A stretch of DNA of 64,000 bases, from NCBI RefSeq assembly GCF_035084215.1, contig NC_090365.1, forward strand, positions 9,176,001 through 9,240,000, in the 5' to 3' direction. Below are positions 4,226 to 31,745 of this stretch, one piece after another (the first letter of the stretch is position 1; every line of letters begins with the position of its first letter). The position numbers were made by a program, and so were the translations under genes. The notes below the pieces were generated by a model. That model did no database searches, was not told the DNA's origin, and worked only from the letters and a program-made list of their open reading frames with translations. Source of the DNA: Heptranchias perlo (taxonomy: Eukaryota).

Positions 4226-5060
4226 GTGCTCGGCCCCTCTCTGACACGTGGCTCCGAGGCCCTTCCGCCCCCTGCACCGTAGACACGCCCACTCATTGTG
4301 ACATCACCCCCCCTCAAGCCCCGCCCAGCCTGAAAAAAGGGGGCAGTTGAGCGCGCCGCCTCATTTATCCGCCAATCGGAATGAGCTGACAATTCAAACA
4401 GGCGCGCAATTAAAGACTATTTCCCATTAACAAGGTTTAATTTTCGCGCTGCCGCCGCTGAGAGCCAATCACGTTTTTTATTATAAAAAAGAAACAGGCG
4501 CGGCCACCTAATGGCCTTAGTGATTGGTTAATAATACTGTCCAATCAATGCCGAACCAGCTCTGACTGACAGGGGAATAGACCTATCATGACCCACCAAC
4601 GTAATCGGCCGCTTTTGATTGGACCATATTGGATGATGTTCAGCCAATAGGGGACGGAGGGCCGGTCCTCTCGGTGTGGGGGGTGTCGAGGTTGAACGGA
4701 TTGAGGCGAAGGGTCCCGGGCCGGTGTGACCCTGGCCTGGACGGAGCTGCCAAAGCTCGGGGAGGGTGTGTGACCGTTTTTATGTTGGACCGTGAGCGGG
4801 TGACGGGCGGGCAGCCAGCACCCGGCCATAGGGTCCGAGGCCCGCGGTCGCGCGCGCGCTCAACACCCTAACGGCAGCAGCGCGAGAGCGGGAATCAGCC
4901 CCGGCCGCCGGGAGCATGCGCAGTCCAGCCCGTTTCTCAAAGTGGGGGCGGGGCGAGATGGTGACGTGTGATTGGAACTCTCGGTTAGAGAACACGCCCT
5001 CTCTCTCCGTGACGTAATTTGATCTCCATGGTTACGGTATTAATACGGAAGAAGGTAAGA
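4226..5060. promoter_or_regulatory. CpG-island promoter upstream of Trx-like gene 1
   Basis: CRE-like TGACATCA at 4299-4306, GC boxes, at least six CCAAT/ATTGG boxes between 4372 and 4650, NRF1-like GCATGCGCA near 4914, and X-box-like ATCTCCATGGTTAC at 5022-5035. Confidence 0.7.
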
Positions 5061-5189
5061 GGGGAGAATGCAGTGGTGGAGCAGGCACCAGGGGAATCAG
5101 CATCACCCAGGTTGAAAAGAACTGGAGGGAGGATGAGGTAACTCAGGAAATGGGAATCCAGGAATTTCACCATGTTAATCCAAACAAAA

Positions 5190-6005
5190 TGGATTGGCAG
5201 ATGAAATTTAATGAAGTGTGAAGTGATGCATTTTGGAAGAAGATGCAATATAAACAAAATGGTACAATTTTAAAGGGGGTGCAGGAACAGAGAGACCTGG
5301 GGGTTCATATACACTAATCTTTCATGGTGGCAGAACAAGTTGATAAAGCTGTTAAAAAAGCATACAGGATCCTTGGCTTTATAAATAGAGGCATAGAGTA
5401 CAAAAACAAGGAAGTTATGGTAAACTACTATAGTGCCTTTAATTATAGTAATCTTTATAAATCATTGGTTAGACCTTAGCTAGAGTATTAGACACCACGC
5501 TTTAGGAAGGATGTGAAGACCTTAGAGAGGGTGCAGAGTAGATTTACCAGTATGATCCAGGGATGAGAGACTTCAGTTATGTGGAGAAGCTGGGATTGCT
5601 CTTCTTAAAGCAGAGAAGGCTAAGGGGAGATTTAATAGAGATATTCAAAATTAAGAGGGGTTTTGATAAGAGTGGATAGGGAGAAATTATTTCCACTGGC
5701 AGTCGGGTCGGTAACCAGAGAATACAGATTTAAAATAGTTGCCAAAAAAGCCAGGGGGGGAGCACAAGGAGATTTTTTTTTTACGCAGCAAGTTGTTATC
5801 TGAAATGCACTACCTGAAAGGAAGCAGATTCAATAGTAAATTTCAAAAGGGAAAAATTTGCAGGGCTATGGGGAAAGAGCAGGGGAGTGGGACTAATTGG
5901 ATAGCTCTTTCAAAGAGCAGGGGAGTGGGACTAATTGGATAGCTCTTTCAAAGAGCTGGCACAGGCACGATGGGCTGAATGGCCGCCATCTGTGCTGTAT
6001 GGTTC
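5190..6005 (+). mobile_element. CR1 LINE 3' fragment (RT C-terminus and 3' UTR), degenerate
   Basis: Homologous to the 3' part of the CR1 at 51830-52630. Contains a short internal duplication of gggagtgggactaattggatagctctttcaaagagc. Confidence 0.8.
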
Positions 6006-8699
6006 TGTGAAAATATGGGCTGTGCTAACTTGTAGAAAATACGGGTATTGAGTGGGGTTGCCAACTCTGGACGTATTCCAGAAGGTTTCATCACCTGTCT
6101 AACCGCCCCCACCTCCAAGCTTCCACCATTGGTCGCCTGACACGACAATCCTCGTAGCACATCACTTTCCCAAGCCAATTGGAAAGCCAAAAGACTTTGT
6201 CACCTGATTGGATGATTCTTGACTATCAGTCAAAGAGCCTGTTTTCCCCCTCTGATTTTTTTTTAATGCCTCTATTATTTTTCTACCTTGCTGAAGTGTC
6301 CAGGACGTGAATCTTTAATTGATGGAATCTCCAGGCCAATCCGGAAGGGTTGGCAACCCTAGCTGTGAGTATTCAGTCCTGTGATAGTGCCCTTGTTTGG
6401 TGTGTATTTGTAAATAGAGCACTCTGCAAGAGTTTAGCAGGTGGGTATGTATTGGCGGTATCTTTGGTGTAATGCCACTGACAGATCATTGTGTCATAAT
6501 ATGTAAAATAATAATGAATTACTGGCTTAATAGGAACAAGATTTGGCTCAGTGGTAGAATTCCCACCTCTAAGTCAGAAGGTGCAGGGTTCGAACCTCAC
6601 TCCAGACAATCCTGATGAGTGGAGACCGGAGCTCCGGTCCTGAATTCTGGGTTGACATCCAGCGGGATACTCGTGTCCGTTGGGTGTGGCAGAGGCTTTT
6701 AGGGAGGGAATTCTTGAGAGTGGGACTAGGTGGCTAAAGGCATGGCTGCCAATGGTGAGGCTAAAGGGGTCAATGTAAAGAGGCCAGTCAGGAATGAAGA
6801 GTGGGGGAAGAGGAGTTGTAGGGCTATAGGAGGTTACAGAGATAAAGAGGGGAGAAACCACGGAGGGATTTAAATACAAGGATGGAAATTTTAAATTTGA
6901 GGGTTTGGAGGGGTCAACGTGGGTTAGGGAGGATGGGTGAGCGGGATGGTGCCAGATATATGGGCAGCAGAGCTCTCCTTGCTACAAATAATCTCCTCCT
7001 AGTTCTTCATTAAGGGTTCTGTTGTAGTAGTCTTGCCTGCTCCTAATTGCAAGGGCCACTCTGCTTACTTCAAATGTATGGGTGAGAAGTTTCCACGAGC
7101 ATGCTCAGTGTTCAAAGCAAGTCAGTCTTGTCTTGTTAAGTGTGATTTCTTGTGGTTTCCAGCCCATTCTTTGGGTGTTTATGGTCCAGCTGCCTGATCT
7201 CTTTCTTCAGCTGAGATCACCCAACCTCTGCACAATCAAGGGACCAAACCTGCGACCAGGATAGCTCACCAGACTTCATCACAAGCATTGGGGAACCACG
7301 GCTGAGTGCAGCCCTGATTTTATCAGTCTTGCAGAATTGAGGCTGAGACCAGCCAAGCAAATTTATCCTGATTAGATTCTGATTACAGGCAGTAACGTCA
7401 ATAGTGGCTGGACACCTGGACTCAAAACTAATAGCTATCTCTAGACAGTTTTGTACATTGTTTGTTTTTATCTCCTTTTGCACAAATGACAAAGGAACTC
7501 TTTACAGTTAATCAAAGGCGATCCTTAAAACACATTACCCACTGTAACAAGCTGATACATGCCCAGGACCCGGTGATCAATTAGACACGCAGACTAGATC
7601 TTCAAACAAGTGAGATTTATTCACCCATGTTGTGTCTTTACTTGCAGTGATAAACGATGGTGATCAGTATTACTTTCCCACCTACCTCTTATCCCTCTCA
7701 GTTCCTTCCTCTCCGAACACCAACAGAACCATTAAGGTCAATGATTTCTTAAAGCTATACCGCCGTTTATTTACCTTCTTAAAGTTGTATCTCTATCTTG
7801 GATTCAGAGCTCTCAACATCCTATGGATTACATATCGTCCTTCTCTCACTCTGTTACTCTACCTAAAGTTATATAAATAAGATACAATACAAGAATTTTG
7901 TCTTCTTCCATTGTACACATGTCCCATCAGCCCACTCTGTTGTGCACCATCCATTCTAGGCTTTCACAACCTAATTGGAAACTCCCGCTCCCAGGATTAC
8001 TTGGGTTTGAATCTCTTTCCTGTTTTTAGGCTGTCGTTCCTAAAGAAAACAAAATTCTTTTTAAAATTAGAAAATGGTTATTTATATTATAAATGGAGAC
8101 CAGAATTGGGGATTTCCTCAAAGGCTCAGTCAGTGCACTGCTCGAGTGTGATACCGAGCAACATGGACCAGAAAGACCCCAGGTTCAGTCCCTGGTTCGT
8201 CTTGAGTTCACCTCATCCATTTGCTCGGAAGAAAATATCATAGAACATTTACAGCACTGAAGGAGGCCATTTGGCCCCTTGTGCCTTGCTAGCTCTTTAC
8301 TAGAGCAATCAAAAGCAAATCACGCTGCCCTGCTTGCTCCCTATAGCCATATTTTAATTATATGATGCAATGGTCTCCACCACAAGTACTATTTATAAAA
8401 CCCAAATGCTATTGCACTATTTATGGTTTTATCTACCTGCACTCTCACTCCCAAGGGAATATGTATCTGCACCCAAGGTGTTACAAGGCTGCAATTTAGT
8501 TCCATCACCTGCACAGTGCTAGATCTTACATTGGTGATCCGATCGTTGTCAGGCTAAGAGAATGGGCACACACAGGAGGCTGTGATCAACTGTCCCAAAG
8601 GTAAGGCTAGACTGGGGTAGCAATGTGAATGTAAGCAAACCATCAGAATTCAGTAGAGCTCCCTTCCTTCTTGCACCTGGACACAACAAATGTGTCTGC

Positions 8700-8967
8700 A
8701 CTGTGGCAGATTTTATGCCCAATAATTTAAGATGATTAGCAAAAGAACGTGGGGTGAGATGAGATTTTTTTTTCCTCAGTGTGTTGTTATGATCTGAAAG
8801 GGCAGTGGAAGTAGATTCACTACTAACTTTCAAAAGGGAACTGGATAAATACTTGATGAGGAAAAATTTGCAGGGCCATGAGGGGGTACGAATTGGATTG
8901 CTCTTTCAAAGAGCTGGCACAGGCTCGATGGGCCGAATGGCGGCCTCCTGTGCTGTAAGATGCTATG
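8700..8967 (+). mobile_element. CR1 LINE 3' end fragment
   Basis: Shares the terminal motif gctctttcaaagagctggcacaggc...ggccgaatgg...tgtgctgta. Confidence 0.7.
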
Positions 8968-9032
8968 CAATGCAACCATTAGCAGGACAGGTACTTTTTT
9001 TTTTATTATTCTTTGTCTGAAACACGTGAGAA

Positions 9033-9353
9033 TTACTTCAGCTGCATAATCAGACGGTCCAGCTTTTCCCTCTTGGTCCCGGAGAACTCCCCGATCTTCT
9101 CCTGGCACCTGTAGAAGTGAAATGTGGGCATGCAGGTGATGGCTGCAGCCCGGGCCAGCTCCTCCGATTCATCCACGTCCACCTCCACGAAGATGATGTC
9201 GCGGTGCTGGTCGGACCGCATCCGGAGGAAGGGCTTGATGTTGGAGCAATTACTGCACCATCGGGCCGCGAAGAAGACGACGATCAGGGTCTCCTCCTCT
9301 TCTCGCAGTAAGGTATCGAACTGCCTCCGGGTCCTGATGGGTCTCAGTACCAT
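9033..9353 (-). CDS. Thioredoxin-like protein 2 of the cluster, WCSNC motif; single exon
   Basis: Intact Trx fold (LIVVFFAARWCSNC...EVDVDE...CMPTFHFY...GEFSG). The strong-Kozak ATG at 9353 gives 106 aa; an upstream in-frame ATG at 9401 would give 122 aa. AATAAA at 9002-9007. Confidence 0.9.
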   Translation of the reverse strand: MVLRPIRTRRQFDTLLREEEETLIVVFFAARWCSNCSNIKPFLRMRSDQHRDIIFVEVDVDESEELARAAAITCMPTFHFYRCQEKIGEFSGTKREKLDRLIMQLK

Positions 9354-9401
9354 CGTGTCGCGTCTTCTCCCACCTTGCGGTCTGTTCAGGCCAGCCCGCA
9401 T

Positions 9402-9776
9402 GTCTCACTTGTAGCCCCTCCCCGATAGTGACGTTACCCCGGCGTCATGGTAGCCCCGCCCACGACTCGCAATCAGCAACATCTGGTCAACTGAAAGAAC
9501 CCAGATGTTGAGCTTCTCCGGCAATGGGCAGCGACTTACCCCCTGGTTTAAGGTGTGAATGAGCCCCGGGTCAGAACCTGGCGTAACACGACTTGAGATA
9601 CAACTCCCAGAGATTCATCAATGAGTGAAACTTGCTGGCGGGAAGGCGGGTGATTGACAGCAGTCGGGACAAATCAGGAGCCGCCCTGTTCTGATTGGCT
9701 CAATGTTACCAGTTGACAGCCCAATGGCAAAGCGCAGATGCGCTTCTTGGTTGTCAGGCTGCGTTTGATTGGCAGG
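9402..9776 (-). promoter_or_regulatory. Promoter of Trx-like gene 2
   Basis: CRE-like TGACGTTA at 9429-9436, GC box near 9453-9461, ZNF143-like tacaactcccag near 9599-9610, and ATTGG boxes at 9694 and 9768. Confidence 0.6.
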
Positions 9777-9989
9777 ATGTGGAGATGCCGGTGATGGACA
9801 GGGGTTGACAATTGTAAACAATTTTACAACACCAAGTTATAGTCCAGCAATTTTATTTTAAATTCACAAGCTTTCGGAGGCTTCCCCCTTCACATCGTTC
9901 ACCTGACGAAGGGGGAAGCCTCCGAAAGCTTGTGAATTTAAAATAAAATTGCTGGACTATAACTTGGTGTTGTAAAATTGTTTACAATT
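9777..9989. mobile_element. Short palindromic Penelope-like element with hammerhead motif
   Basis: Perfect 82-bp inverted repeat (9810-9891 / 9908-9989). Flanking direct repeat TTTGATTGGCAGG (9764-9776 / 9988-10000). Terminus gatgtggagatgccggtgatggac is shared with the GIY-YIG-bearing copies. Confidence 0.85.
9898..9936 (+). ncRNA. Minimal type I hammerhead ribozyme motif (Penelope pLTR type)
   Basis: ttcac-CTGACGA-stem II-GAAA-gctt-gtgaa. Both core boxes are present, stem I is ttcac/gtgaa, and stem III is the palindrome AGCT. Confidence 0.6.
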
Positions 9990-11929
9990 TGATTGGCAGG
10001 GAATTGGGGATTCCTGCATTTTAGGGCGTCATGTGGCAGTGCCCATTGGCGAGTCAAAGTTTGGCCCTGCAGCCACTTGCAACCTTAGTACAGGGCAAAC
10101 AGGAAATTGGCATCTCAGGACGTCAGGGTGTTCAAGAAGAATCTAAAGTTAAAATCAGGAGCACTCGTTAAATTCTATTAATGAATATTTTAAGCTGTGC
10201 AACAGCTTTACAGCAGTGATCTGCAGAAGTTTCAGATATGCCCACATTTACATGTTTAATGGTGTCCACAATGCAGACCTGGATGGGGTCACACGGTAGA
10301 TAAATTCTCCGCCAATACAAAGAATATTTGGAAATGCGCAGAAGACGTTAGCAGGTGTAAAGAGAAAAGACGGGATAATGTTTTCGGTGCGGGGTCCTCG
10401 GGTCGGGACTGGGGAAAAAAATGCTCCTTTTTATAGAGCTGAACGGAACAAGGGTGGGGGTGGGAGAGCAGAAAAAGGTATCAGGAAGGCTGACCCGAGT
10501 CGCAAATAGACTGTGTTTACTGGTCTGCAAACGGGTGTTTTGAAGAGCAAAAGAGAGGTGAAAACTGGTGGATGATATCGGATCATCTCAATTAATCAAA
10601 GAAAATTCAATAAAACAAGAGGGTGTGAGTTAGGGGTGAAATGCATGAGAGAGATGCACAGAGGGGGAAAAAAAATCCCTCCCAAAATGGAGACATATAA
10701 AGTAGAAGGAGATTGGAAGAACAAGAAAGAAAATGGGGGAATTAAAAAAAAAACGGATATGTAACAGACCCGTCAGTACCCGAATGAGAGAAGTCACGCC
10801 AACTGTGTTCTGTTAAAAGGGTCCAACTAAAAAGTCAACTTTCCTCCCCTCCCCAGAGGCCAGTGGGCCCACCGTGTTTACCCAGCACACTGTGCTTCTG
10901 AGAAAATGGGTTAGCTCAGGTCACTGTTCAAACCAGTGGGCTCCAGAGTGCCCAAGAGAGAAGGGAATTGGAAAAATATTTGAAGGGGATTAAAATTGCA
11001 GGGCTATGGGGAAAGAGCAGGTGAGTGGGTCTAATTGGATAGCTCGTTCAAAGAGCTGGCACAGGCACTTGGGCTGAATGGCCTCCTTCTGTGCTGTAGG
11101 AGTCTATGATTCTATTCTTGAAGCTTGCATTGAGTTTTTTTTAAAAATAATTTTTGGGATGTGGGCAAGGCTGGCATTTATTGCAGTTGCCCTTTGAAGG
11201 TGGTGGTGATGCAACTGAGTCGCTTGCTAGGCCACTTAAGAGGGCAGTTAAAGAGTTAACCACATCAGTGTGAGACTGGAGTCACATATAGGCCAGACCA
11301 GGTAAGGACAGCAGGTTTCCTTCCCTAAAGGACATTACAACAATCCGACAGCTTCACGGTCACTTTTACAGACACCGTTTTTTGTTATTTCCAGAATTAT
11401 TCTCAAACTGAATTAAAATTATCAAACTGCCACGGTGGGATTTAAGATCACATTCTCTGGATTATTAGTCCAGGTTTCTGGTTACTACTTCAGTAACATA
11501 ACCACTACACTGCCATACTCATTACTAGTTACAATAGTGTAAGAGGCCAAAGGTAGCAAGAGGTCAGAGGGTGAAGTTGAAGTAACACAGGAAGTCCTAA
11601 TCTCACTTGCGGACAGAACTGAGGTATTAAGCAAAGGTCATCCAACCTGCATTTGGTCTCTTCACGAGGAGTCATTTCAGTATCCTAGATTTGAGGAAGT
11701 ACATGTAAATTGCAGTCTTGCTCACAAGGAGTGTTTTGAGACCCGAGACAACGGGGTGGGGAAGGGTGAATGAACAGATGTTGCATCTGCTGTGCTTGCA
11801 TGGGAAAGTGCCACTCGAAGTCATGGTGGTGGAAGAATAAACCAGGGAAGAAGGAACTGTCCCTCCAAAGAAGGGAGGGGATGATACGCTTGGTGGTGGG
11901 ATTATGTTGTAGATAACAGATAAAGAACA

Positions 11930-12445
11930 ACAACTTGAATTTATAAAGCGCCTTTAACATAGGAATATGTCCCACGGCTTTTTAGGAGCATAATGAGACA
12001 AAGATTAACACCGAGCCGAAGGAGATATTGGGAGGGGTAACAAAACTTGTTCAAAAGGGAGGGTTTTAAGGAGTGTCTTAGGGGAGAGAGGTGGAGATGC
12101 AAGGAATTCGAGAGCATGTGGCCTAGATGGCTGAAGGCACGGCCACCAATGGTGGGGCGAAGGAACTGGGGGTGTGTAAGAGGCCAGAATTGGAGGAGCA
12201 CGGAGATCTTGGACGGTTATAGGAGGGGGAGGTTACAGAGCTAGAGAGGGGTGAGGCCATGGAGGGATTGAACACAAGAAGTATTGGTGTATCGGGAGCC
12301 AATGTAGATGAATGAACACGGGGTGCTAGGTAAGCGGGACTTGTGGGATAGGATACGGGCAGCAGAGTTTTAGATGAGCTCATGTTATGGAGGGTGGAAG
12401 ATGGCAGGCCGGCCAGGAAATCAATGGAATAGTCAAGTTTGGAGG
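11930..12445 (-). mobile_element. L2-like LINE 3' fragment
   Basis: Degenerate ORF (RPTIGGRAFS...) and 3' tail shared with the other copies. Confidence 0.65.
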
Positions 12446-12914
12446 TAACAAAACTCTTCTAATCTATCGGGTTTTCTGCCATTTCCTCTCCCAATTTTCA
12501 AAACAATTATTAGTCCTTATGATTTTCATGGAAGGGAGAGTGGAGTTACAGAATTCAGATCAAAATTTAGCTACAAGCTTTAATTTTAGTCAGTATGGAT
12601 TTAATCAGTAATACATTGGAAAGGAACAAATAAGAGTAAGACAATAATAAAAACCCGTAAAATGTTTCATGAAGTATAATGTGAAAAAGTCCTCAGTACC
12701 TCTTCCCCCCCCCCAAACCCCCCACCCCCACCCCAGAAATCTGGCACACCAGTCTGTACATGATGCAGGCGATTGATGCTCCCCATCGATATGGTCTACT
12801 CCCTGTGCCAAATTGGGTTAAGTGCTGTATGTGATGTCTCTGGGTCTATGGGGTTTAAGCGTATTTTTGAATCCATGGGCGGGGGATTCAGATTTAACCT
12901 GAAGGAGGCTAATG

Positions 12915-13360
12915 TACCCATCACCCCTGTACTTCCTGATCTACATTGCCTCCTGGTTCAGCAAAGCCTCGAATTTAAAATTCTCATCCCTGTGTCCAAA
13001 TCTTTCCATGCCCCCACCCCTCCCCATCTCTGTAACCTCCTCCAGCCCTAACAACCCTCCGAGATCTCTGTGCTCCTCCCAATTCTGGCCTCTTGTACAC
13101 CCTGATTTCCTTCGCCCTACCACTGATGGCCGTGCTTTCTGCTGCCTAGGCCCTAAGCTCTGGAAATCCTTCCTTAAACCTCTCCGCCTCTCTTCCTTTA
13201 AGACCCTATTTAAAATCTATCTCTTTGACCAACATTTTGGTCACCTGCCCTAATATCTTCTTATGTGGCTTGGTTTCAAGTTTTGCGTGATAACGCTCCT
13301 GTGAAGCGCCTTGGGATTTTTTACTACGTTAAAGGTGCTATGTCAAGGCATGTTGTTGTA
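12915..13360 (+). mobile_element. L2-like LINE 3' fragment
   Basis: ITPVL.DLH.L.V...FKIL and GRAF..LGPKLW.S motifs typical of the L2 ORF2 C-terminus; ttg tail. Confidence 0.7.
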
Positions 13361-14574
13361 AATGCACTGGAGTCAAATTTCCTCATTGTCATATGGGTTT
13401 GCAATTCGCCCGTGGGATAAGGGAGCCACTTTTAGCAGTGCCACCACTGTGCTCATAGATATCGCTTTCCCAAGAAACAAACTACAGAAGCACCAAAAGT
13501 AAATGAAAGCAGCTTTCCTCATTTACCAGGTTATCCCATTGCTTTCTCTTTAATGATATGATTCACACTATGCTTGCCCTCTCGTCTCCATCCTGCCTGT
13601 TATCCTACATTGTCCCTCCTGCTGTCCCTCAGACCCAGTACAGTAGCTCCATTGGATCAGTTATCCGCTGAAGATGCTACCTTATGATGGGCCATAGTTC
13701 CACCCGAACCCTCCAGTGATTTGCCCAAGTAGTCATTCATTTCTGAGCCTAAGTAGCGAGCGTCAGCGGGTTGATTGACCGAAGGGGACAACACGACAAA
13801 GTCTCATTCCTGTTCACACTGGGCTGGGCATTTACTAACTGAGCAAGCAGATTGTCTGAATTGATATTGTCATTAAAAGCAAGCTGACGTTTACTGTCGT
13901 GCTCCACATATTGATTTGCAGATTTGGGCAAATCCAACATCTGTGACTAAACTAACCTTCAGCTGGCAAGGAAGTCAACTAAGATTGATGAAAATATTTT
14001 AGACAATGTCCAACAAATACAAATAAAACGATTGGATGTTTCTGATGCTAATGATCACACAGGTTAGATCTCACACACACTATCACACAGAGACTTCGAA
14101 ACAGGTCATTGGAGGAGAAGGGAAGTACAGGGCTGGTTTGTGATGGGGTTAATCTCCATCTTGAGAGGCGATCCTTTGCCACTGGGTTTTCAAACTGGAG
14201 TCTGTCGATCCTAAGCGGGGTCTGTCAGGAAATATTACAATTAATGTCAGTCATAATTGCATAACACTCAGCACCACTGACCATATTGGGGAGGGAACCC
14301 ATTTATCCTGAGTGATATTCTACTTACCCAGTCACAGTTTGTGTGCAAGGCGTTTGTCTTTTAAGTGACGTCACACCCAGAACCAGAGGATCGGGACAGT
14401 TGCTGCTGGGTGTGCTTCATTTGCGTTTCTGGTTTGTGATGTACATGCCCCCCTCTCCCGTGCAGTTCTGTATTGTTGGAGGTGCGTTGCTTTGGACGAT
14501 TCGTTAAACTGAGTGTCTTTCTACCTGTTCCACTGCAGCGTGTCCTCCATCAAACAATAACAGTTTTAACCTTT

Positions 14575-15003
14575 GCTCAGTGGGTAGCACTCTCGCCTCT
14601 GGGTCAGAAGGTTCAAGTCCCACTCCAGAGACCTGAGCACAAAATCTAGGCTGAGACTCCCAGTGCAATAGAGGGAGCTCTGCACTGTTGGAGGTGCCGT
14701 CTTTTGGACAAGACGTTAAACCGAGGCCACGTCTTCCCCCTCGGGTGGATGTAAAAGATCCTATTTGAAGAAGAGCAGGGGAGTTCTCCCCGGTGTCCTG
14801 GCCGACAATTATCCCTCAACCAACAAAACTGAAAAAAACAGATTATCTGGTCATCATCTTTGCTGTCTGTGGGACCTTGCTGAGCGCAAATTGGTTGCTG
14901 TATTTCCTACATTACAACAGTGACTACGCTTCAAAAGTACTTCCTTAGCTGTAAAGCGCTTTGGGACGCTTCATGAAAGGCACTATATAAATGCAAGTTC
15001 TTT
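14575..15003 (+). mobile_element. tRNA-derived Deu-domain SINE (SacSINE1-like)
   Basis: tRNA-like A and B boxes (gctcagtgggtag...ggttcaagtccc), conserved core and LINE-like tail (tatataaatgcaag). About ten homologous copies in the window. Confidence 0.75.
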
Positions 15004-15409
15004 TACCACCAGAAACAGATTAGCTGGTCATTGTGCAGATCACTTACACTATGATCGTCCCCACTGCGAGACAGGCTACAGGCACAGCTAGTCTGACCTG
15101 GAGGGGGAGATGAGCAATGGGGAATATTCAGTGTCTCACATAAGGCGCTAGTTGCTTGTTAGCCTGGCCACAACCATAATTTTAATAAAATGGTGACTTT
15201 TGTCAATTGTTGCTTAAAACAGCTTATGGGGGTAACTGGGTGGTGCAGGGGGCTAGGCAGGTGTTTCACCTCAAGGGACTTGGGTTCAGATTGATGGGAT
15301 GAGTGACTCCACTCTCTCTGTAAGGGTCCTCTGTGAAATGAGTTGGGGCAGTCTCAATGCAGTTCCTTGTGGGCATGGCCACACAGAACAGATCTTTCTT
15401 CTTCTTGTT

Positions 15410-15800
15410 TAATAACTTTGAACAAAACAAAGGGAAACTTATAAACTAAATTATATTATTCCCAGTGTCCACAAATTGCTGCAGTCCCTGCGGTGCCCAC
15501 CGTTCGCGGAAGGCCTCAAATGTACCAGCGGACACCACCTGCTCCTTCTCCAGGGCCACCCTGGCGCAGTCAAGACTGCGGAAGTGATGTAGGCAGCCAG
15601 AGCGACCACAACTTCCCCCCCGTCCCCTTGGGCCGCGGCCATCCTGGACCTATAGCTGGCCACCTTGGCCAGGCCCAGGAGCAGACCCACAAGGTCCACA
15701 GACTTGCCGTCTCCAATTCATCAATTTCACTCTAAAAACTCACTGGGTGAATGGTGTGGACCTGTTCACCAGTGTCTCAGCACACTGAGGTGGGGGGGGG
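15410..15800 (-). mobile_element. L1/Tx1-like LINE 3' ORF2 remnant
   Basis: Degenerate ORF (DLVGLLLGLAKVA.Y.SR) resembling a Tx1-type ORF2 C-terminus. Confidence 0.45.
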
Positions 15801-16109
15801 AGAATCAGAGGGGGAAAGGGTTAACCAGAAAGCAGGCTCTGGATTAGATTTTTTTTGTCTGATTACGCCTCAGTGAAGTGCCTTGCGACATTTTTCTACA
15901 TTAAAAGGCACTGTATAAATGCAGTGTTGTTGGAGATAAGGGTTCAGTAGAGTGAAACAAAAGGAGCTGGAGAAACACAGTACAACTCTGAAAGCAGATT
16001 AACTTGCAACATTTGGCAGTGTTCAAATCAATGTAGATTCCTGTTTACGATGGGACGGTATTATCCCGGGATCACACTGCCTCCCTTATACACTATTCAT
16101 TGAATCATG

Positions 16110-16742
16110 GACTCTTACAGCACAGAAGGAGGCCATTCAGCCCATCGTGCCTGTGCTGGCTCTTTGAAAGAGCTATCCAATTAGTCCCACTATTTCCCCA
16201 CAGCCCTGCATAACTTTCCTTTTCAAGTATAAAGCCAATTCCATTTTGAAAGTTACTATTGAATCATCATAACTCGCAGCGTAAAAAAAAAAATTCTCAT
16301 CTCCTCTTTGGTTCTTTTGCCAATTATCTTCCTCTGTGTCCTTCCTCTGTGTCCTCTGGATACTGACCTTCTCACCAGTGGAAACAGTTTCTCTTTATTT
16401 ACTTCATCAAACCCCCTCCTCTATTAAATTTCCCCGTAACTTTCTAAGATCTCTGCGCTCCTCCAATTCTGGCCTCTTACGCATCCCCGATTTTCTTCGC
16501 TCCTCCATTGGCAGCCATGCCTTCAGCTGCCTGCGCCCTAAGCTCTGGAATTCCCTCCCTAAACCTCTCCGCCTCTCCTCCTTTAAGACGCTCCTTAAAA
16601 CCTACTTCTTTGACCAAGCTTTTGGTCACCTGTCCTAATATCTCATGCGGCTCGGTGTCAAATTTTGCCTGATAACGCTCCTGTGAAGTGCCTTGGCACA
16701 TATTACTACTTTAAAGGCGTTATATAAATGCAAGTTGTTATT
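16110..16742. mobile_element. Adjacent CR1 3' fragment (minus) and L2-like 3' fragment (plus)
   Basis: Homology to the other CR1 and L2 copies in the window. Confidence 0.65.
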
Positions 16743-17159
16743 GTAAGGAGAACAATCCCAGTGTCTCTAGTCTCTCCACGTTGCCAATACTCAATACTTA
16801 TTGCCAAATACAGCATGTACCTTGATGGGCTCGCACCTTTTCGGAGAACACCCCCCGAAAGAGTTAGAATGTAAACCATGAACAGACTTGAAATAATATC
16901 TCTATGCAGTCTCTCATTTTCACACTTCTTTAATTGCAAAAATCTGACAAAGGCACGACTAGTCTGATGGACCAGTGATTGGGGTGCTAGTCTTACACTA
17001 CACCTAGTTTACAGTAACACCAACCTGACACTTAGGACAAATCCTTTAATCAATACCTAACTCACTGGAAATCAAACACCCCGACACCTTCTGAAGGCTT
17101 TTACAAACCACCTCCAATAAACAGCTGTGTCTGTGAAGGAACAGTCAGTCCAACAGTCA

Positions 17160-17243
17160 AATAAAGCTGTTGGACTATAACCTGGTGTTGTAAGATTCCT
17201 TACATTTGTCCACCCCAGTCCATCACCGGCATCTCCACATCAT
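17160..17243 (+). mobile_element. Penelope-like terminal fragment
   Basis: Nearly identical to 26110-26193 (ttggactataacctggtgttgtaagattccttacatttgtccaccccagtccatcaccggcatctccacatca). Confidence 0.75.
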
Positions 17244-17765
17244 TTCTCGATTAGCAGACGACTGTGGGTAGATGTGTCGGTTATCGGTCCTCCTTTTCAA
17301 GCCTTGCGAGAAATAAAGTGGCATATGTTGGGTATTTTTTTTTTTGAAAAGGATAAATTTGAAGTACACAAATTTAATTTTGAGAAGATAGAAACTATTT
17401 GGAGGAGAGACCGCAGGCTGTCATACTGGAGCTGTAGGGTGCTCTGATTAGGCTACACCTTGAATACTGCCTTCAGTTCCGGTCGCCAAGGCATGGGAAC
17501 CTCCAGACCCTGACGGTGAGAAGGACCACAAAGCTGATCTCTAGTGTCAGAGAACAAGGAAATATTAGAAAAACCTCTTAAGCCCTAAAAGGTGAAGGAG
17601 AGCGGTCCTTAGAGAGTTATACAAGATGCTACAAATATAAAAAAGGATAATCTGTACCAATTTTACAAGTTAAAACATGGCATAGCTACAAGCTGGCAAA
17701 AGGCAAGTTCAGGACTGATTTCAGGAAGTACTTTGTCACACCTGTCACACTAAATCACACAAGTC

Positions 17766-18335
17766 TTGTTACAATTGTACAGGGCTTTGGTGAGACCTCA
17801 CCTGGAGTACTGTGCACAGTTTTGGTCTCTTTATCTAAGGAAGGATATACTTGCCTTAGAAGCGGTCCAACAAAGGTGCACTAGATTGATTCCTGGGATG
17901 AGAGGGTTGACCTATGGGGAGAGATTGAGTAGAATTGGCTTATACTGCCTGGAGTTTAGAAGAATGAGAGTGATCTCATTGAAACACATAAGATTCTGAG
18001 GGGGCTTGACAGGGTAGATGCTGAGAAGCTGCTTCCCCTGGCTGGAGAGTCTAGAACTAGGGGGCATAGTCTCCGGATAAGGGGTCGGCCATTTAAGACT
18101 GAGATGAGGAGGAATTTCTTCACTCAGAGGGTTGTGAATCTTTGAAATTCTCTACCCCAAAGGGCTGTGGATGCTCAGTCATAAGTATATTCAGGGCTGA
18201 GGTAGATAGATTTTTGGACTCCAGGGGAATCAAGGGATATGGGGATCAGGCAGGAAAGTGGAGTTGAGGTCAAAGATCAGCCGTGATCTTATTGAATGGC
18301 GGAGCAGACCTACTCCTGCTCCTATTTTTTATGTT
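17766..18335 (+). mobile_element. CR1 LINE 3' fragment
   Basis: LYRALVRPHLEYCAQFWS...LEAVQ.R.TRLIPG, the CR1 RT C-terminus. Confidence 0.85.
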
Positions 18336-19462
18336 CATACAGAGTGAACGATATCCGGAAAGGGCTTCAGGAAGGGGAGTGGGGCAGAAACACGGGAATT
18401 GTTCCAGGTGGAATTTGGATGCAGTGATAGGAAAGTGGGATCGTGGGTTTTTATACTAGAATAAGGTAGATGGGTACAATGGCCTCCCTCATTGTTGAGG
18501 GTAGTCCCAAAATACATGCTGCATGGGGTTCCCTCCTACCTGAGGTCTTTGAAGCGTTTCTCCTTTCTCAATAAGTCGGCTAGCTGGCATTTACGATAGG
18601 TGAAGTTAAGATACAGATCGGCCATGATCTAACTGAATGGCGGAACAGGCTCGAGGGGCTGAATGGCCTAATCCTGTTCCTATTTTCAGAGGAAACATGT
18701 TGATAAAGAAACTAGATCAAAAATCAGTCACATACTTGGGTAAGCACTTTACAATGAACAAATAAAAGTGAAGCTTCCCTGGTAGGTCAGTAAAGGCACG
18801 GCCATAGATAACACTAAATCCTACAGTTCAGATTGTCCCTGACTCAATTCCTACTGAGTTTGCAGATCCAACCCAGGGTGGTTGTAGAAAAGCTACAAAT
18901 GGCCTCAGAACCCCTGGGCTAAGGAAGAGGGGGGAAAATAAAATCAGCTAGGGTTCTTACTCCTGATTGCTATCCAATAATCCCTGCTGGAAAAATGTGT
19001 GAATGTCAGGTGGGGTCAGAAGTATGGCATTCTGCGGTCAAAAGCCCTGCCGACACTCACTGTCTGGGCTCGCGCATAAAGGATGGTGATTTGGGCAGGG
19101 TTCTGGATGTCTGACAGTCCCTGTGGAACCGAACCCCTTCAAGAGGCAACATTTTCAGGAGAAAATTGGAACAGAAAAAGGGAGGGATTGGGAGAAGGGT
19201 ACCAAATACACCCAGCTTGCAACAAATATTGACTTCCGAATTTCTTCATCCAGCACCTTGCTGAAGACTGTTCTGAGCCATGAATGCATTCAGATTTGTC
19301 GCCCAAGTCTCTCACTATTGAGATACTTATTCGAAGAGGGTGGGGGGAGAAACCATTTTTTCCTGAAGCCTCAAGATTACAAATCACCACTGACATTAGG
19401 CAGAAGCAAACCTACAAGGGATGGTGACTCCAATTTAAAAAGCCGTTGATTGGCTGTGAAAA

Positions 19463-19793
19463 GAAAGACTTGCATTTATATAGCGCCTTTCACAACCACA
19501 GGACGTCCCAAAGCACATTACAGCCAATGAAGTACTTATGAAGTTTAGTTACTGTTGTAATGTAGGAAATGCAGCACTCCCTGCTCTTCTTCCAATAGTG
19601 CCATGGGATCTTTTACGTCCAGCTGACAGGGCAAACGGGGTCTCGGTTTAACATCCAATCCGAAAGACGGTGCCTCCTACAGTGCAGCACTCCAGCAGTA
19701 CTGCACTGGAGAGTCAGCCTAGATTTTGTGCTCAAGTCTTTGGAGTGGGACTTGAACCCACAACCAGAGGCGAGGGGTGCTACTACTGAGCCA
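19463..19793 (-). mobile_element. Deu-domain tRNA SINE, internally deleted
   Basis: Reverse-complement homology to 14575-15003. Confidence 0.7.
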
Positions 19794-20032
19794 CAAAGCA
19801 ATGGGAAATCCTAAGGTCGTGAAAGGTACTATATAAATGCTAGCTTTTTCTTAATGTGTGAGAAATACAAGCCCCAATCCAAAATACTCGTGGATAAGCT
19901 TCCTTTTATAACCCACTAAGATCCCATATGCCACCCATAAACCACTGTGATTGACTCTTAACTGTCCTTTGAAGTGGCCGAGCAAGCCACTCAAATATAT
20001 CAAAACAGCCACAACTGTAGTGGTTCAAGAAG

Positions 20033-21153
20033 CCATGATGTGGAGATACCGGTGATGGACTGGGGTGGACAAATGTAAGGAATTTTACAACACCAGGTTA
20101 TAGTCCAACAGTTTTATTTGAAAATCACAAGCTTTCGGAGCTTTCGTCTTTCATCAGGTGTGTGAAGGTTTCCATCAAAGCACCGCATATATAGTCACAG
20201 CACAATGCCTGGTGATTACAGATAATCTTTCCAACTGCCTGTTATCACACCTCTGCATGGATGGTGTTCAGACAGGGGAACATTACACCTAAGACCATTG
20301 AATACGCAAGCGGTCAGATTACAAAGACAGAGAGAGAGAGAGAGAGACAAAGAATGGCCAGTTGTATTAAAAACAGATAACTTATTTCCCCCCCCCCCAG
20401 TGGGATTACATGTAGCGTGACATGAACCCAAGATCCCGGTTGAGACCGTCCTCATGGGTGCGGAACTTGGCTATCAATTTCTGCTCGATGATTTTGCGTT
20501 GTCGTGTGTCTCGAAGGCCGCCTTGGAGAACGCTTACCCGAAGATCGGAGGCTGAGTGTCCTTGACTGCTGAAGTGCTCCCCGACTGGGAGACAACGGAT
20601 GAACGGGCACCGCACAACAATCGCCAGACAGGAGGGTTCCCTACCAGTCGGGCAACACTTCAGCAGTCAAGGACACTCAGCCTCCGATCTTTGGGTAAGC
20701 GTTCTCCAAGGCGGCCTTCGAGACACACGACAACGCAAAATCATCGAGCAGAAATTGATAGCCAAGTTCCGCACCCATGAGGACGGCCTCAACCGGGATC
20801 TTGGGTTCATGTCACGCTACATGTAACCCCACCGGGGGAGGGGGGAAATAAGTTATCTGTTTTTAATACAACTGGCCATTCTTTGTCTCTCTCTCTCTGT
20901 CTTTGTAATCTGACCGCTTGCGTATTCAGTGGTCTTAGGTGTAATGTTCCCCTGTCTGAACACCATCCATGCAGAGGTGTGATAACAGGCAGTTGGAAAG
21001 ATTATCTGTAATCACCAGGCATTGTTCTGTGACTATATATGCGGTGCTTTTGATGGAAACCTTCACACACCTGACGAAGGACGAAAGCTCCGAAAGCTTG
21101 TGATTTTCAAATAAAACTGTTGGACTATAACCTGGTGTTGTAAGATTCCTTAC
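20033..21153. mobile_element. Penelope-like element in inverted (palindromic) arrangement
   Basis: Inverted arms of about 515 bp (about 20074-20591 / 20641-21154). Both encode a GIY-YIG endonuclease C-terminus (LPVG.HFS...EQKLI..F.T...GLN.D) and a hammerhead motif. 14-bp direct repeat AGTGGTTCAAGAAG at 20019-20032 and 21154-21167. Confidence 0.88.
21068..21102 (+). ncRNA. Minimal hammerhead ribozyme motif
   Basis: cac-CTGACGA-agga...ctcc-GAAA-gctt-gtg. A mirror copy lies on the minus strand at about 20126-20160. Confidence 0.55.
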
Positions 21154-21411
21154 AGTGGTTCAAGAAGGCGGTGGACCACCACCTTCTCAGGGCAGTAAAT
21201 GCCGACCGTGCTAGTGATGCTCACATCCTGAGAATGAATTTTAAAAACTGCCTCCCTTACTTTCTCTGGTTGGATTTTTTTTTTAGTTGCAGATTTATTT
21301 ATCCAGAGCAATCCTGCACAGGGCAGAAAATTCAGTCTCAATTAATTTTTTTTCCTTTTCGCTTTCCTCTCTATTTATCTTTTTTTTTTGCTTTAACTTC
21401 TAACAGGCCGC

Positions 21412-21729
21412 TCACTGCAGCTCGTCCAGTAGGTGCTCCAGCTTCTCCCTCTTGGTCCCCGAAAACTCTCCCATCTTGGTCTCCCGCTTGTAGAAGTGAA
21501 AGGTTGGCATGCAGGTGATGCCGGAGGACCGGGCCAGCGGCTCCGCGTCGTCCACGTCCACCTCCACGAAGACGATGTTGTTGAGCTGCTCGGAGAGGTT
21601 GTAGAAGTGCGGTCGGATCATCCGGCAGTTGCCGCACCATTCGGCCGAGAACATGATGACCACCAGCTTCTCCGTCTGGCTCAACAAGGTCTCGAACTGC
21701 TTGGCATCCCCCACGTGTTTCACCACCAT
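21412..21729 (-). CDS. Thioredoxin-like protein 3 of the cluster, WCGNC motif; single exon
   Basis: The strong-Kozak ATG at 21729 gives 105 aa, the length of canonical TXN. Sequence KLVVIMFSAEWCGNCRMIRP...EVDVDD...CMPTFHFYK...GEFSG. Upstream in-frame ATGs fall in promoter-like sequence. Confidence 0.92.
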   Translation of the reverse strand: MVVKHVGDAKQFETLLSQTEKLVVIMFSAEWCGNCRMIRPHFYNLSEQLNNIVFVEVDVDDAEPLARSSGITCMPTFHFYKRETKMGEFSGTKREKLEHLLDELQ

Positions 21730-21975
21730 GCTGCTTCCGGCTCCGTGCCCCGCCCACTGGGCCTCAGCCCCGCCCCCAATCCCCATAGTGACGAGTGTCG
21801 ACGTCAACCTCCTCCGCTCCCATTGGCTAATTCTCATTGGCCATTCCTGATCACACGATTGCTACTTTTTTTATGAATGAATGGGTGGCAAGCCCTCAGC
21901 TCCATTGGCCGGAATGTGGATGATTGACGGTGCAAGGAGCCTATCAGAAAGGCGTCCCTGTGCCCACCAATTGGT
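21730..21975 (-). promoter_or_regulatory. Promoter of Trx-like gene 3
   Basis: GC boxes near 21748-21777, TGACG at 21789, CGACGTCA at 21799-21806, and ATTGG at 21822 and 21836. Confidence 0.6.
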
Positions 21976-22189
21976 ATTTTTAAATTTCAAAATATATTTT
22001 ATTTCAAAAAAATTAAAAATACCACAATTCCAAAGCAATACAATGTGGATCGTAAACAATAAGATTCCAACATTACAATTTAAAACATAGTGTATATCAT
22101 ATATCTGTGCTGTATCTTTTCTATAGTTCTATATATCCATTTTTTCAGACAGCAAGTGCTGGTAATGGTTCTGCTGTTGCCATTTACAG

Positions 22190-22485
22190 CTACTCTAAAC
22201 GGATCTTTTGTTTCTTAACCTGTCCCATTACCACCCTTGTTTGCTTTGCACCATTATCCCTTTTGTCATTTAATCACCCTTTTGTCCTTTCCCCCCACCC
22301 TTCCCTGGCTCTGAACTTGCTTAAAAACTTTAACTCTTTAATATCTTCCAGTTCTGACAAAAGGTCTTCGACCTGAAACGTTAACTCTGTTTCTTTCTCC
22401 ACAGACGCACCCTCACTTGCTGAGCTTTTCCAGCATTTTCTGTTTTTATTTCAGATTTCCAGCATCCGCAGTATTTTGCTTTTGA
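22190..22485 (+). mobile_element. Second Penelope-like family fragment with degenerate hammerhead
   Basis: ctgacaaaaggtcttcgacctgaaacgttaac...tccagcattttctg. Related copies at about 26615-26720 and 40475-40645. Confidence 0.55.
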
Positions 22486-24255: not shown

Positions 24256-24601
24256 TTCTAGCATGAGCCATTGGAAGACAGTAAGAGTGGAGAATACTGG
24301 TTGATATTTCCTCCCCCTGTAGCCCAGGGATACTGAGACAAGTTGCAGAAACCCAGCTGTTGCCTTGGCTGAAATCAGCTAGCTAAAGGCCCTTTCACAT
24401 TATGGCCCAGTGCAGTCAAGCTGATGGGAAAGTGACACCAACATGACTTCCCTACACTGATCTCTCATTTTTACATTTGTTGCCAGTCTGCCTCAGGCTA
24501 ATTGTGGAGGAAGATTCAACAGCAAACTGGGTGAGGAATGAATAAATTGGGTTTGCACTGTCACCTGTATAAGGTAGGTCAATGGATTTGCACATTGATT
24601 G

Positions 24602-28607: not shown

Positions 28608-30021
28608 TATAGCAGTGGAACTGACACAACACCTTGTGCTTTGGAGTCACCTTGTGTAATGTCACCCCTTACAGGTACAAGATGCACAGTGAGTGCTCTG
28701 TTGCTGCCTGAAAGAACCCTAACCGTGCTGCTTTGAGAAACTCCAAATGGAGCACACACCCCTCCCAACATGGGAGGGAAAATCACTGCCATGCACCCTT
28801 GGTAGCTGACTGAAGAGTCAAATTGTGAGATGCCTGGGGTGTAGGTCCACCTTCTTGTCTGCAGGAGACATTGCCCTGTTGGCAAGGAGTAATGGAGAAT
28901 TGATAGCCTTACAGTAAACAGCTTTACAACAGGGTGTGGTGCAAATCCTTCAGCCCAGCATACCAATCAACTTTCTCCTTACCTCTGGCTATGGCACCCT
29001 CCCATCTCCTGAGATCAGTGACACTTGCTGGGGTATGGCTTCATAACACCCCTCAGTCTTCATACGTGAACCTAGACAGTGAGGGTCGGCAAATCTCACC
29101 TCCATTTTATAAACAATCCCTTTTAAATTCTTAAACACTCAGTTGGTCCAGCTCCATTTCAACTGTTGATCTGAGATGTAGACTAACATGGAGTCTCAAG
29201 CAGAAGAGGTGCATGAAAGCTGCCGGCTTTGTTGTAAAAACCCAAATAGCTAATGCCCTTCATTGAAGGGATCCTGCCACCCTGGCTCGTGACCATTCCC
29301 ACTTTACGTGATCAACTCAATGCCCTCTGACGTGGCCTTGGAAGGGATGGGCAATATATGCAATATTGCCAGTCTGACCCACATCCTGTGAGCAAATTAA
29401 TGGGAAAAAATAATCAACTCCTGGATCATACATCCATAAAGCCAATGGATGCTGCTACTCCAGTTTCCTGAGCCAATCAGCACCGTTTAGTGCCCTATCT
29501 CCACCTGGTGATCATCCTCGTGTATGAGATCAGTCAGTAAGTATAGACAGGCTGTTCCGCCACAAGCGGGCACCACATCCTAGTCTGACCCTGTCCTCAC
29601 CCCATCGTCCATACATTCAGTGGGAGGGGGGCGTCACTGGAGAGGGATCGGGAGCCGGAACGTTGGGTTTGTTTGCCCATTCCCTAGTGTGCCACCCTGA
29701 CCGTGATCAGCGCGGGCGATACAGAATGTGGATGGAGCCTGGTACCCCCCTCTGTCCCTTTCCGCATCGGCTGGCGCATTGAGAGGATTGGATTCCGCAC
29801 TTATTCGCCATTGGAGACGATGTCTTTCCAGGAGTTTGCCAGCCGGAGCTGCAGGTAGTGCACTGGGAGTGCCAGCCTAGATTTTATGCTCAAGGAGTGG
29901 GACTTGGACCCACAACCTTCTGACTCAGAGGCCAGACTGCTACCCCACTGAGCCAAGACTGACACCTTGACACAATAATAAGCAGCCACAAACGCCGGGC
30001 ATCAGTAGAAATCGGCTGGGT

Positions 30022-30375
30022 TTAATTTATAGGGGGCTGGCACGCCCCGCCCCCCTGTAGCTTCTGGATCATTCGCTCCAGGAGGCACCGGTTGGGCCCC
30101 TTGAACTGGAAGACCTTGGAGCCGGTCTTGTAGAACTGGAAGGTGGGGAACCACTGGATGCAGCAGCGCTGCACCACGTCCTGGGCCACGTTCACGTCCA
30201 CCTCGTAGAAGGCCACGGCCGGGTAGCGCTCGGCGAACTGGTCGAAGTACAGCTGGATCATCTGGCAGAACTCGCACCAGTTGGCGGAGAAGAGCAGGAC
30301 GACCAGTTGCTCGTCGCTGTCCCGCAGCGCCGCCTCGTACTCCGCCACGCAGCTGATGGTGGTCACCGCCCCCAT
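30022..30375 (-). CDS. Thioredoxin-like protein 4 of the cluster, WCEFC motif, cysteine-rich; single exon
   Basis: The first ATG (aggATGg) at 30375 gives 117 aa; the ORF-track start at 30429 is a GTG. Sequence QLVVLLFSANWCEFC...EVDVN...FPTFQFYK.G.KV..F.G.N. ATTAAA overlaps the stop codon. Confidence 0.9.
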   Translation of the reverse strand: MGAVTTISCVAEYEAALRDSDEQLVVLLFSANWCEFCQMIQLYFDQFAERYPAVAFYEVDVNVAQDVVQRCCIQWFPTFQFYKTGSKVFQFKGPNRCLLERMIQKLQGGGACQPPIN

Positions 30376-31745
30376 CCTTCGCCCCGCCTGCTCGGCACAA
30401 GCCGGCCAGCAGGCCGCGGCCCCGCCCACCCCGTGACGTCAAGCGACGTGACACAGGGAGCCCTTGCCCGCGACGCCATTGGTTGGCCGACACACGTGGG
30501 AGGAGGGGGGGTCCCCTATCCGCCAATCAGAATGGACCTTTTCAGTATCTTAGCAACCGAGTTAAAAATAAAAAAATGGCGTTCTGAACGTCGATTTGTT
30601 AAATTGGACGATGCAAAGCGCCGCTGGTGATTAATTCGAACATTAATTATGGAAGATTAATTAGGAGACTCCTCATAACATGTTTGATTTGTGAGCGGTT
30701 GCCTCAATTCGGATTTCAAAAGAAATGTTCGGTTGCCACCAAAGCACGCTTGTGATTGGTCGCCGCGGCTGTCAATCACGGGGTCACGCCTCGATTTTAA
30801 TGATCGGCAGCCCAGCCAACCAATCGGAGCCGAGGCCGGGAGTCCCGCGTTCCAATTGGGCCACAAACGCCGATGAGGAGCCAGTGACAGCGGCGAGGGG
30901 GCGGGTGCTTCCGCTCGGCGAGTCTTGATTGCCGGAGCGCGGCGGCTGGGGGGGGGGGGGGAAGGAAGAAAAAAAAACAACATGAAGAATTCGGCGGGGA
31001 GTGGATGGGTCATGGCGGCCGGGGGTCGGTGAGGAGGGAAAGCGGCGGAGCCGGTGATGTTCGGGGCCCTGTAATTCCTCCGGGGGGGAAAAAAATCGCT
31101 TTCCAAGTGACTCAGCAGGTAGCGGCCCCGGGGAGCCGGGCTTCTATATATTTTTTTCCCTCCCCCGGCTTCAGTTCGTGGGGCGCCTCGGCCGCCCGTT
31201 TAAACGGCCGCTTCCGAGATCCCGATTTTCACCCGGGAGGAGGAGGAGGGGGGGGGGGTTGAGAGGCAGGCGGCCTGCAGCCCGGCGGCGGGCGGGTAGG
31301 TGTTCTCCCCCCCCCGGGCGGAGTATATGCTCCCCCCCCGGGCGGAGTATATGCCGAGGTGTGAGGGCGAGAGCCCCTCCGGTAGTTGGGGGCGGGAGGA
31401 GGAGGGAGAGAGTGAGTGGGGTGGGGGGAGGAGAGCGCCGGCCGCTCCGCCGCTCAAACTGCGCATGCGCCTCCTGCAGTGCAGTCTGGGAGTTGTAGTT
31501 CTGTCGGGGCTTCTTAATTTGAAAAGTTTGGGGGGGTGGGAAATACTCTGGAAATTTTCGAAGCGGCCGGCCTCTCCCGCAGAATCTAGGGTGCCGGACG
31601 GCCACCCGCCCACAGCTCTTGGGTACGAAAAGGATGAGGAGGCGGAGAAGAAAGTCTTGAGGACTTCAACTCCCAGAATTCATTGCGCGGCGGCTAGGTT
31701 TCGAACGGGAGGGTCGCGGCGCCGGACTGCGCACGCGCTGTGGGG
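30376..31745. promoter_or_regulatory. Bidirectional CpG island serving Trx-like gene 4 (minus) and the SERTA gene (plus)
   Basis: Perfect CRE TGACGTCA at 30434-30441, many CCAAT boxes, NRF1 site TGCGCATGCGC at 31460-31470, ZNF143 ACTACAnnTCCCA motifs at 31481-31500 (minus) and about 31663-31687, and a candidate splice donor CAG|GTAGCG at 31118/31119. Confidence 0.75.

Follow-up and report, generated by a model that had tools for sequence, protein, structure and literature searches.

A candidate CRE-bearing promoter core common to four tandem thioredoxin genes in the shark Heptranchias perlo

A thioredoxin array with upstream CRE-like sites

The stretch of Heptranchias perlo DNA analysed here (64,000 nt, NC_090365.1, positions 9,176,001 to 9,240,000; hereafter the window) carries on its minus strand four uninterrupted thioredoxin (Trx) open reading frames (ORFs), arranged head-to-tail as copies 1 to 4 and starting at ATGs 4225, 9353, 21729 and 30375 (Table 1). 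Upstream of each copy lies an octamer resembling the cAMP response element (CRE), and this CRE signal is real and well above chance. Together with partial homology among the upstream regions and changes common to the proteins, it makes it likely that an intronless TXN-derived gene with a CpG-island promoter was multiplied by tandem DNA copying into four genes that kept a common promoter core.

A preliminary description of the window had placed the octamers 74, 76, 70 and 59 nt upstream of the ATGs of copies 1 to 4, and both the octamers (Table 1) and, given the mapped ATGs, the distances were recovered as described. The window contains 21 sites that differ from the CRE at one position at most; they occupy 186 of 6390 100-nt windows, or 35 of 571 CpG-island-like windows. 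When the 100 nt directly upstream were shuffled with dinucleotides preserved, the CRE reached p values of 0.041, 0.031, 0.021 and 0.018 (product 4.7e-7), the copies being paralogues and hence, in this as in the other chance tests, not four independent draws. A motif-blind 8-mer control was also run, since the CRE had been chosen after looking. It returned three 8-mer centres in register in all four regions (TGACGTCA, GACGTCAC and CCGCCCGC); among 500 shuffles, some common 8-mer centre appeared in 24%, one with at most five G+C in 1.6%, and a palindromic one in none. We call the signal real because it survives both the composition-matched and the motif-blind controls.

Within this signal, the pentamer GTGAC is exact and in register at -73, -75, -59 and -58 relative to the ATGs of copies 1 to 4, with a second occurrence at -73 in copy 4; an in-register 5-mer with at most three G+C arose in 0.3% of 1000 shuffles. 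The string ATAGTGACG, previously noted as common to copies 2 and 3, occurs at 9425 and 21785 only, a match that is weak alone (p 0.02 for the pair, 0.068 over six pairs). Because copies 2 and 3 share this string, the copy 3 homologue of the copy 2 CRE is likely to be the half-site at 21789 (-60) and not the octamer at 21799. In a four-way alignment of the promoter DNA, which was left unused, the CREs did not line up.

Promoter layout and homology between copies

Read in gene direction, the four upstream regions share an arrangement in which a CRE or half-CRE with GTCAC at its end precedes an Sp1/KLF box by 3-10 nt. The CCGCCC boxes reported near each CRE are present, at -40 and -96 in copy 1, -103 in copy 2, -21 and -41 in copy 3 and -47 in copy 4, but they are not positionally fixed and the side of the CRE on which they fall varies; GC boxes alone are weakly enriched (product p about 0.015 in shuffles of 250 nt). 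Likewise, the CCAAT boxes ascribed to every copy were found within 250 nt in three of the four, copy 2 having no exact CCAAT in that interval, and the product p for CCAAT alone was 0.066 over the same length. None of the four copies has a TATA-type match within 400 nt of its ATG, in agreement with the original observation, and all four gene starts lie in a CpG island (GC >0.5, CpG observed/expected >0.6). The features of a TATA-less CpG-island promoter, with SP1/KLF, CRE and CCAAT motifs clustered, are present, the CCAAT box being proximal in the three copies just mentioned. The wider flanks had been described as unrelated repeats, which holds in part, but those of copies 1 and 4 continue into CpG islands: the island of copy 1 extends to about 5200, and copy 4 stands head-to-head with a SERTA-domain gene with which it has one island in common. 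In the copy 4 region (30000-32000), an antioxidant response element (ARE)/AP-1-like site, TGACTCAGCA, occurs at 31108.

Absent from the preliminary description is an 18-nt CCAAT element, identical at 17 of 18 positions between copy 1 (at -141) and copy 4 (at -142), which we take as the best sign of promoter inheritance in these alignments. Other sites in the window match it at no more than 13 of 18 positions, and 0 of 150 shuffles equalled it over all six pairs. The proximal 170 nt can be aligned above block shuffles for copies 1 and 4 (0/300), 2 and 4 (P 0.003) and 1 and 2 (P 0.027). Further upstream (170-510 nt), 2 of 12 pairs fell at P <0.05, which was taken as no homology. Viewed as tandem DNA duplicates, copies 1 and 4 have clear flank homology, and pairs with copy 3 do not.

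Proteins and age of the array

All four proteins score above the Pfam PF00085 cut-off (62.9-88.1 bits vs 23.5), with pairwise identities of 29-53%. The closest PDB structure to copy 3 is a thioredoxin (E 8.5e-31), a search of the ESM Atlas returned generic thioredoxin clusters only, and a tblastn search of the window turned up no Trx copy beyond these four. Identity at four-fold sites between copies ranges from 7/11 to 16/23, values that are uninformative at a third-codon-position GC content of 0.83-0.97. In copy 1 the Trx domain is preceded by a low-complexity N-terminus of K/P/A/E/S containing a 24-nt tandem repeat. Copy 2 has a further in-frame ATG at 9401, and most of its orthologues begin at the position of 9353. 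N-myristoylation of copy 4 was considered and rejected, Met-Gly being kept in just three of its seven orthologues. One isoform of copy 3 in the databases (P0007), identical to it at 100% over 76% of its length, starts at an internal Met; its splice joins 21416 to a downstream exon that begins at 14221, with GT-AG sites, which hints at transcription. The only other perfect CRE in the window, at 14366, lies in the intron of this isoform, 145 nt from the acceptor at 14221, and has no Trx ATG behind it.

Orthologues were taken from searches with copy 3 (14 of 20 candidates, of copy 3 and copy 2 types), copy 1 (9 of 800) and copy 4 (7 of 9). A 31-row tree combined the four proteins of the window with 27 hits; of the 30 obtained, the two records of the window's own proteins and the isoform were left out. 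The tree resolves four orthogroups, each with both sharks and rays; those of copies 1 and 4 are strongly supported, and those of copies 2 and 3 are weak once two Callorhinchus rows are added. Since orthologues of each copy occur in both sharks and rays, the array, as dated by these trees, predates the shark-ray split; a copy 2-type protein is also present in chimaera. The splits among sharks, rays and chimaeras date back some 250-400 million years. In Scyliorhinus torazame, locus tags 0016843-45 correspond in sequence to copies 1, 2 and 3, which suggests the same gene order as here. Two Callorhinchus proteins (P0008 and P0010) have identical C-terminal halves, reflecting either gene conversion between copies 2 and 3 or a mis-joined gene model.

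None of the 31 chondrichthyan proteins carries WCGPC, the active site expected of a canonical TXN reductase. The buried Asp five residues before the Trp is replaced by F, L or M in 31 of 31, and is present in 24 of 26 comparison rows; Trp-Cys-x-x-Cys and the cis-Pro position are invariant (29/29). The loss of Asp in every row fits descent of the copies from one gene. A second tree had 41 rows: 15 were drawn from the 31 shark rows, and the other 26 were chosen by eye from 147 unnamed proteins and given labels by likeness. In it, the 15 chondrichthyan rows fall on one side of a branch with support of 87/81, unstarred and from a bootstrap that had not settled. The earlier proposal that the genes were duplicated as DNA along with their promoter agrees with their common strand, single clade, lost Asp and flank homology, and such a duplication is well supported.

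Probable origin of the array and points against it

Under the account that we favour, one TXN-derived intronless gene, probably a retrocopy, would have arisen in an early cartilaginous fish and gained a compact TATA-less CpG-island promoter. Gene and promoter would then have been copied in tandem as DNA to yield the four genes, with selection retaining the factor-binding core (a CRE or half-site ending in GTCAC, an Sp1/KLF box 3-10 nt downstream and NF-Y further up) and the spacer DNA drifting apart. Binding of CREB/ATF/CREM, Sp/KLF and NF-Y factors would be predicted to start transcription a few tens of bases before the ATG.

Several observations weigh against this account. The promoters of copies 2 and 3, the closest protein pair, do not align above shuffles (P 0.43), nor do those of copies 1 and 3 or 3 and 4. 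The nearest exact CCAAT of copy 2 is as far away as -341 (9694), followed by one at -368, and the NF-Y consensus itself accounts for part of the 18-nt match between copies 1 and 4. All motif distances refer to the ATG and not to a mapped transcription start. A KLF and CRE composite at 4946-5017 has no Trx ATG behind it; together with the CRE at 14366, it means that the motif set is not exclusive to Trx genes, and together with the generic nature of the motifs it leaves room for independent recruitment at some copies. No orthologous promoter DNA was seen, a metagenome scan of 26 loci containing 0 shark orthologues (identity 34-49% on long matches and up to 69% on short ones). The unsettled bootstrap on the branch that unites the chondrichthyan rows belongs to the same list.

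The composite is part of a second promoter-like cluster (4946-5040) located 700-800 nt upstream of copy 1, which mirrors the copy 1 core and may represent an alternative start or a divergent transcript. A candidate plus-strand splice donor is found near 5037.

Germ-line expression and alternative interpretations

The preliminary description had gone further and proposed that the four genes are co-expressed in the male germ line. In its strong form, with CREM-tau-driven spermatid promoters and expression of all four copies in the male germ line only, we regard this as a serious possibility that falls somewhat short of an even chance. It is favoured by the CRE-T octamer of copy 1, since CRE-T is associated with regulated, not housekeeping, promoters (PMC2267717), and by the finding that most sites bound by CREM are half CREs or deviate from the CRE by one mismatch (PMC3091680). 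An ATF/CREB site controls the testis restriction of Pdha-2, a gene silenced in the soma through methylation of such a site (cited in PMC10491193), retrogenes tend toward testis expression (PMC2724483), TXNDC2 and TXNDC8 are described as testis-specific (PMC8219672), and copy 1 has the TXNDC2 layout (PMC2584115), three of its eight orthologues being named 'thioredoxin domain-containing protein 2-like'. On the other side, mouse and human promoters in general show clustering of ten motifs, CRE, CRE-T, SP1, KLF and CCAAT included, and those of the ten that contain a CpG are predictors of housekeeping promoters (PMC2267717). The positional peak of CREB/ATF sites is sharper in housekeeping genes; testis specificity was a property of another positional motif, RFX (PMC2249607), whose X-box pattern matched copy 4 alone of the four. 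Of the more than 6700 loci at which CREM is bound in spermatids, only a small subset is CREM-dependent (PMC3091680), and the shark cluster stands apart from TXNDC2-like proteins in the tree. We found no literature link of TGAYRTCA (CRE-T) to testis, and none was evident for TGATGTCA. The testis specificity of TXNDC2 and TXNDC8 was rejected as evidence for the shark genes, being an analogy only, as orthology was not found in the tree.

Because CRE, Sp1/KLF and CCAAT make up the standard vertebrate CpG-island set, the germ-line inference is not carried by the motifs, and a CRE 59-76 nt before the ATG does not discriminate a CREM-tau spermatid promoter. By analogy, the motifs would permit a testis bias, for instance through somatic CpG methylation as in Pdha-2, without indicating it. 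A testis or germ-line bias of the cluster, as opposed to exclusivity, is nonetheless slightly favoured in our judgement, and is plausible given the apparent retro-origin of the genes and the resemblance of copy 1 to TXNDC2 in layout. In the excerpted catshark sperm proteome, whose full table identifies proteins by UniProt accession only, the one named Trx-domain protein is scyTo_0001399 and not 0016843-45 (PMC11083954).

The four upstream regions could instead be ordinary broad or stress-inducible CpG-island promoters, with low multi-tissue or differing expression, which we consider unlikely. This alternative draws on the housekeeping character of the motif set (PMC2267717, PMC2249607), the location of all four copies in CpG islands, that of copy 4 in common with the SERTA gene, and on assembled contigs. 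Contigs from four of seven runs (X1, X6, X2 and X3) were mapped on 3300-22300, an interval that leaves copy 4 outside. RNA is only the presumed source of the runs, DNA being possible for the contigs as well, and the contigs cannot show level, strand, start or tissue. Among the matches listed, contig pieces of 196-461 nt fall on Trx copies: X6 covers parts of copies 1 and 2 and X1 part of copy 3, both with no differences, and in a second organism X2 matches copies 2 and 3 and X3 matches copy 3, which places copy 3 in three of the four runs (X1, X2 and X3; three samples, two organisms). Gene bins had a summed depth of 0-10.4, no more than some repeat-poor non-gene bins (0-10.8), among which bin 13444-14077 is at 0 in all four runs. 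Besides the shortness and possible DNA origin of these contigs, the loss of the canonical active-site context in 31 of 31 proteins speaks against broad expression, since it would fit a specialised role better.

Chance matches in GC-rich DNA, or independent recruitment with no inherited promoter, would fit the abundance of GC and CCAAT boxes, the common 8-mers in 24% of motif-blind shuffles and the three promoter pairs that do not align, but are very unlikely given that the CRE enrichment survives both controls and that copies 1 and 4 carry their 18-nt element, which has no equal elsewhere in the window, at positions differing by a single nucleotide.

Significance of the array

The promoter of the favoured account, an inherited CpG-island core, is a textbook motif set, and its value would be that of a natural footprint, with one core before four diverged paralogues. 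The gene array is the more interesting object, as a possibly independent and ancient group of non-canonical thioredoxins of cartilaginous fishes. The proteins are already in databases, automatically annotated as 'thioredoxin-like', and no published description of the cluster was found in the open-licence literature. If the genes are germ-line specific, sperm thioredoxins would have originated twice, independently, among vertebrates, and the cluster would provide four reporters for probing whether sharks have a CREM-type spermatid programme. More tentatively still, and in our view rather less likely than not, cartilaginous fishes may have evolved their own sperm thioredoxin toolkit, independent of TXNDC2 and TXNDC8, under a CRE promoter that pre-dates the shark-ray split. 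Were this true, copy 1 would have converged on the TXNDC2 layout, CRE-driven spermatid transcription would date to the jawed-vertebrate ancestor, and the four non-canonical thioredoxins could be responsible for disulfide formation in the chromatin or tail of sperm. Shark protamines are cysteine-rich.

Feature coordinates and other elements of the window

Outside the array, ORFs at 46351-48255 include a zinc knuckle and resemble the gag-protease region of a retrovirus or long terminal repeat (LTR) element. An inverted repeat of 180 nt, near-perfect and with relatives elsewhere in the window, occupies 9810-9989 and is probably a small mobile element, and a tandem array at 58375-58856 comprises 10.5 copies of a 46-nt unit with 96% matches.

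Table 1. Thioredoxin ORFs, upstream motifs and a neighbouring gene in the window
Feature	Position	Strand	Details
Copy 1 ORF	3584..4225	-	213 aa; Trx domain, WCETC; ORF intronless; orthologues in 8 sharks/rays
Copy 1 proximal motifs	4265..4326	-	CCGCCC 4265; KLF-type CACGCCC 4284; Sp1 box 4319
Copy 1 CRE		-	GTGAC 4298; CRE-T variant TGACATCA 4299 (CRE-T as named in PMC2267717)
18-nt CCAAT element, copy 1	4366..4383	-	141 nt upstream of copy 1 ATG
Cluster upstream of copy 1	near 4946-5040		NRF1-like 4915; Sp1 box 4946; half-CRE 4962; KLF box 4993; TGACGTAA 5010
Copy 2 ORF	9033..9353	-	106 aa; WCSNC; orthologues in copy 3-query search
Copy 2 motifs	9415..9463	-	KLF-type CCCCTCCC 9415; half-CRE 9443; Sp1 box 9454
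Copy 2 CRE		-	GTGAC 9428; TGACGTTA 9429
Copy 3 ORF	21412..21729	-	105 aa; WCGNC
Copy 3 motifs	21748..21845	-	Sp1 boxes 21748, 21768; NF-Y-type boxes 21820, 21834
Copy 3 CRE		-	half-CRE GTGACG 21788; CGACGTCA 21799
Copy 4 ORF	30022..30375	-	117 aa; WCEFC; orthologues in 7 sharks/rays
Copy 4 motifs	30420..30485	-	Sp1 box 30420; second GTGAC 30448; NF-Y-type box 30476
Copy 4 CRE		-	GTGAC 30433; perfect CRE TGACGTCA 30434
18-nt CCAAT element, copy 4	30517..30534	-	142 nt upstream of copy 4 ATG
SERTA-domain ORF	35865-36698	+	

Comparison with known systems

Vertebrate TXN is a multi-exon gene. The shark copies resemble Thioredoxin-1 (TXN) in their PF00085 domain, Trp-Cys-x-x-Cys and cis-Pro position, and differ from it in lacking WCGPC and the buried Asp and in their uninterrupted ORFs. 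Among TXN derivatives, the closest likeness is that of copy 1 to TXNDC2 (Sptrx-1), a TXN retrocopy with a low-complexity N-terminus (PMC2584115): copy 1, too, is an intronless TXN-derived domain after a low-complexity K/P/E/S/A-rich N-terminus, and the stretch KEAGERLV is found in both. The resemblance is confined to copy 1, copies 2-4 having no N-terminal extension, and the extension of about 105 aa contains 3.8 copies of an 8-aa unit, whereas the TXNDC2 repeat is of 15 aa (PMC2584115). TXNDC2-like proteins, so labelled by likeness to the sequence in the supplement of PMC2584115, keep WCGPC-type sites and, in six of seven, the Asp, neither of which is found in the shark group. They group with mammal-type TXN (92/96), away from the shark cluster, and a forced clade of copy 1 with the TXNDC2-like rows is disfavoured, not rejected (p-AU 0.068). 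An unnamed long-branch row (P0176), which we take to be TXNDC8-like, also falls away from the shark group. Two unnamed vertebrate-type WCGPC thioredoxins (P0090 and P0120) with an A/E/K/P-rich N-terminal extension stand apart from the TXNDC2-like rows, and on these sequences extended thioredoxins may have had more than two origins.

As an intronless gene with a compact CRE-bearing promoter, mouse Pdha-2 offers a further likeness (cited in PMC10491193), as does the rat Rtdpoz retrogene cluster (PMC2724483). Testis expression has been measured in both, whereas the shark cluster is known from its sequence and is far older. The nearest match for the promoter itself is the TATA-less CpG-island class, in the described examples of which the same motifs lie within about 150 nt (PMC2267717, PMC2249607, PMC1796609). 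CRE-T is regarded as a functional deamination variant of the CRE, and CRE and its TG variant swap between mammalian orthologues (PMC1796609), much as TGACGTCA in copy 4 and TGACATCA in copy 1 swap here. What sets the shark locus apart from a generic CpG-island promoter, as far as DNA sequence alone can tell, is that the core is repeated before four paralogues.

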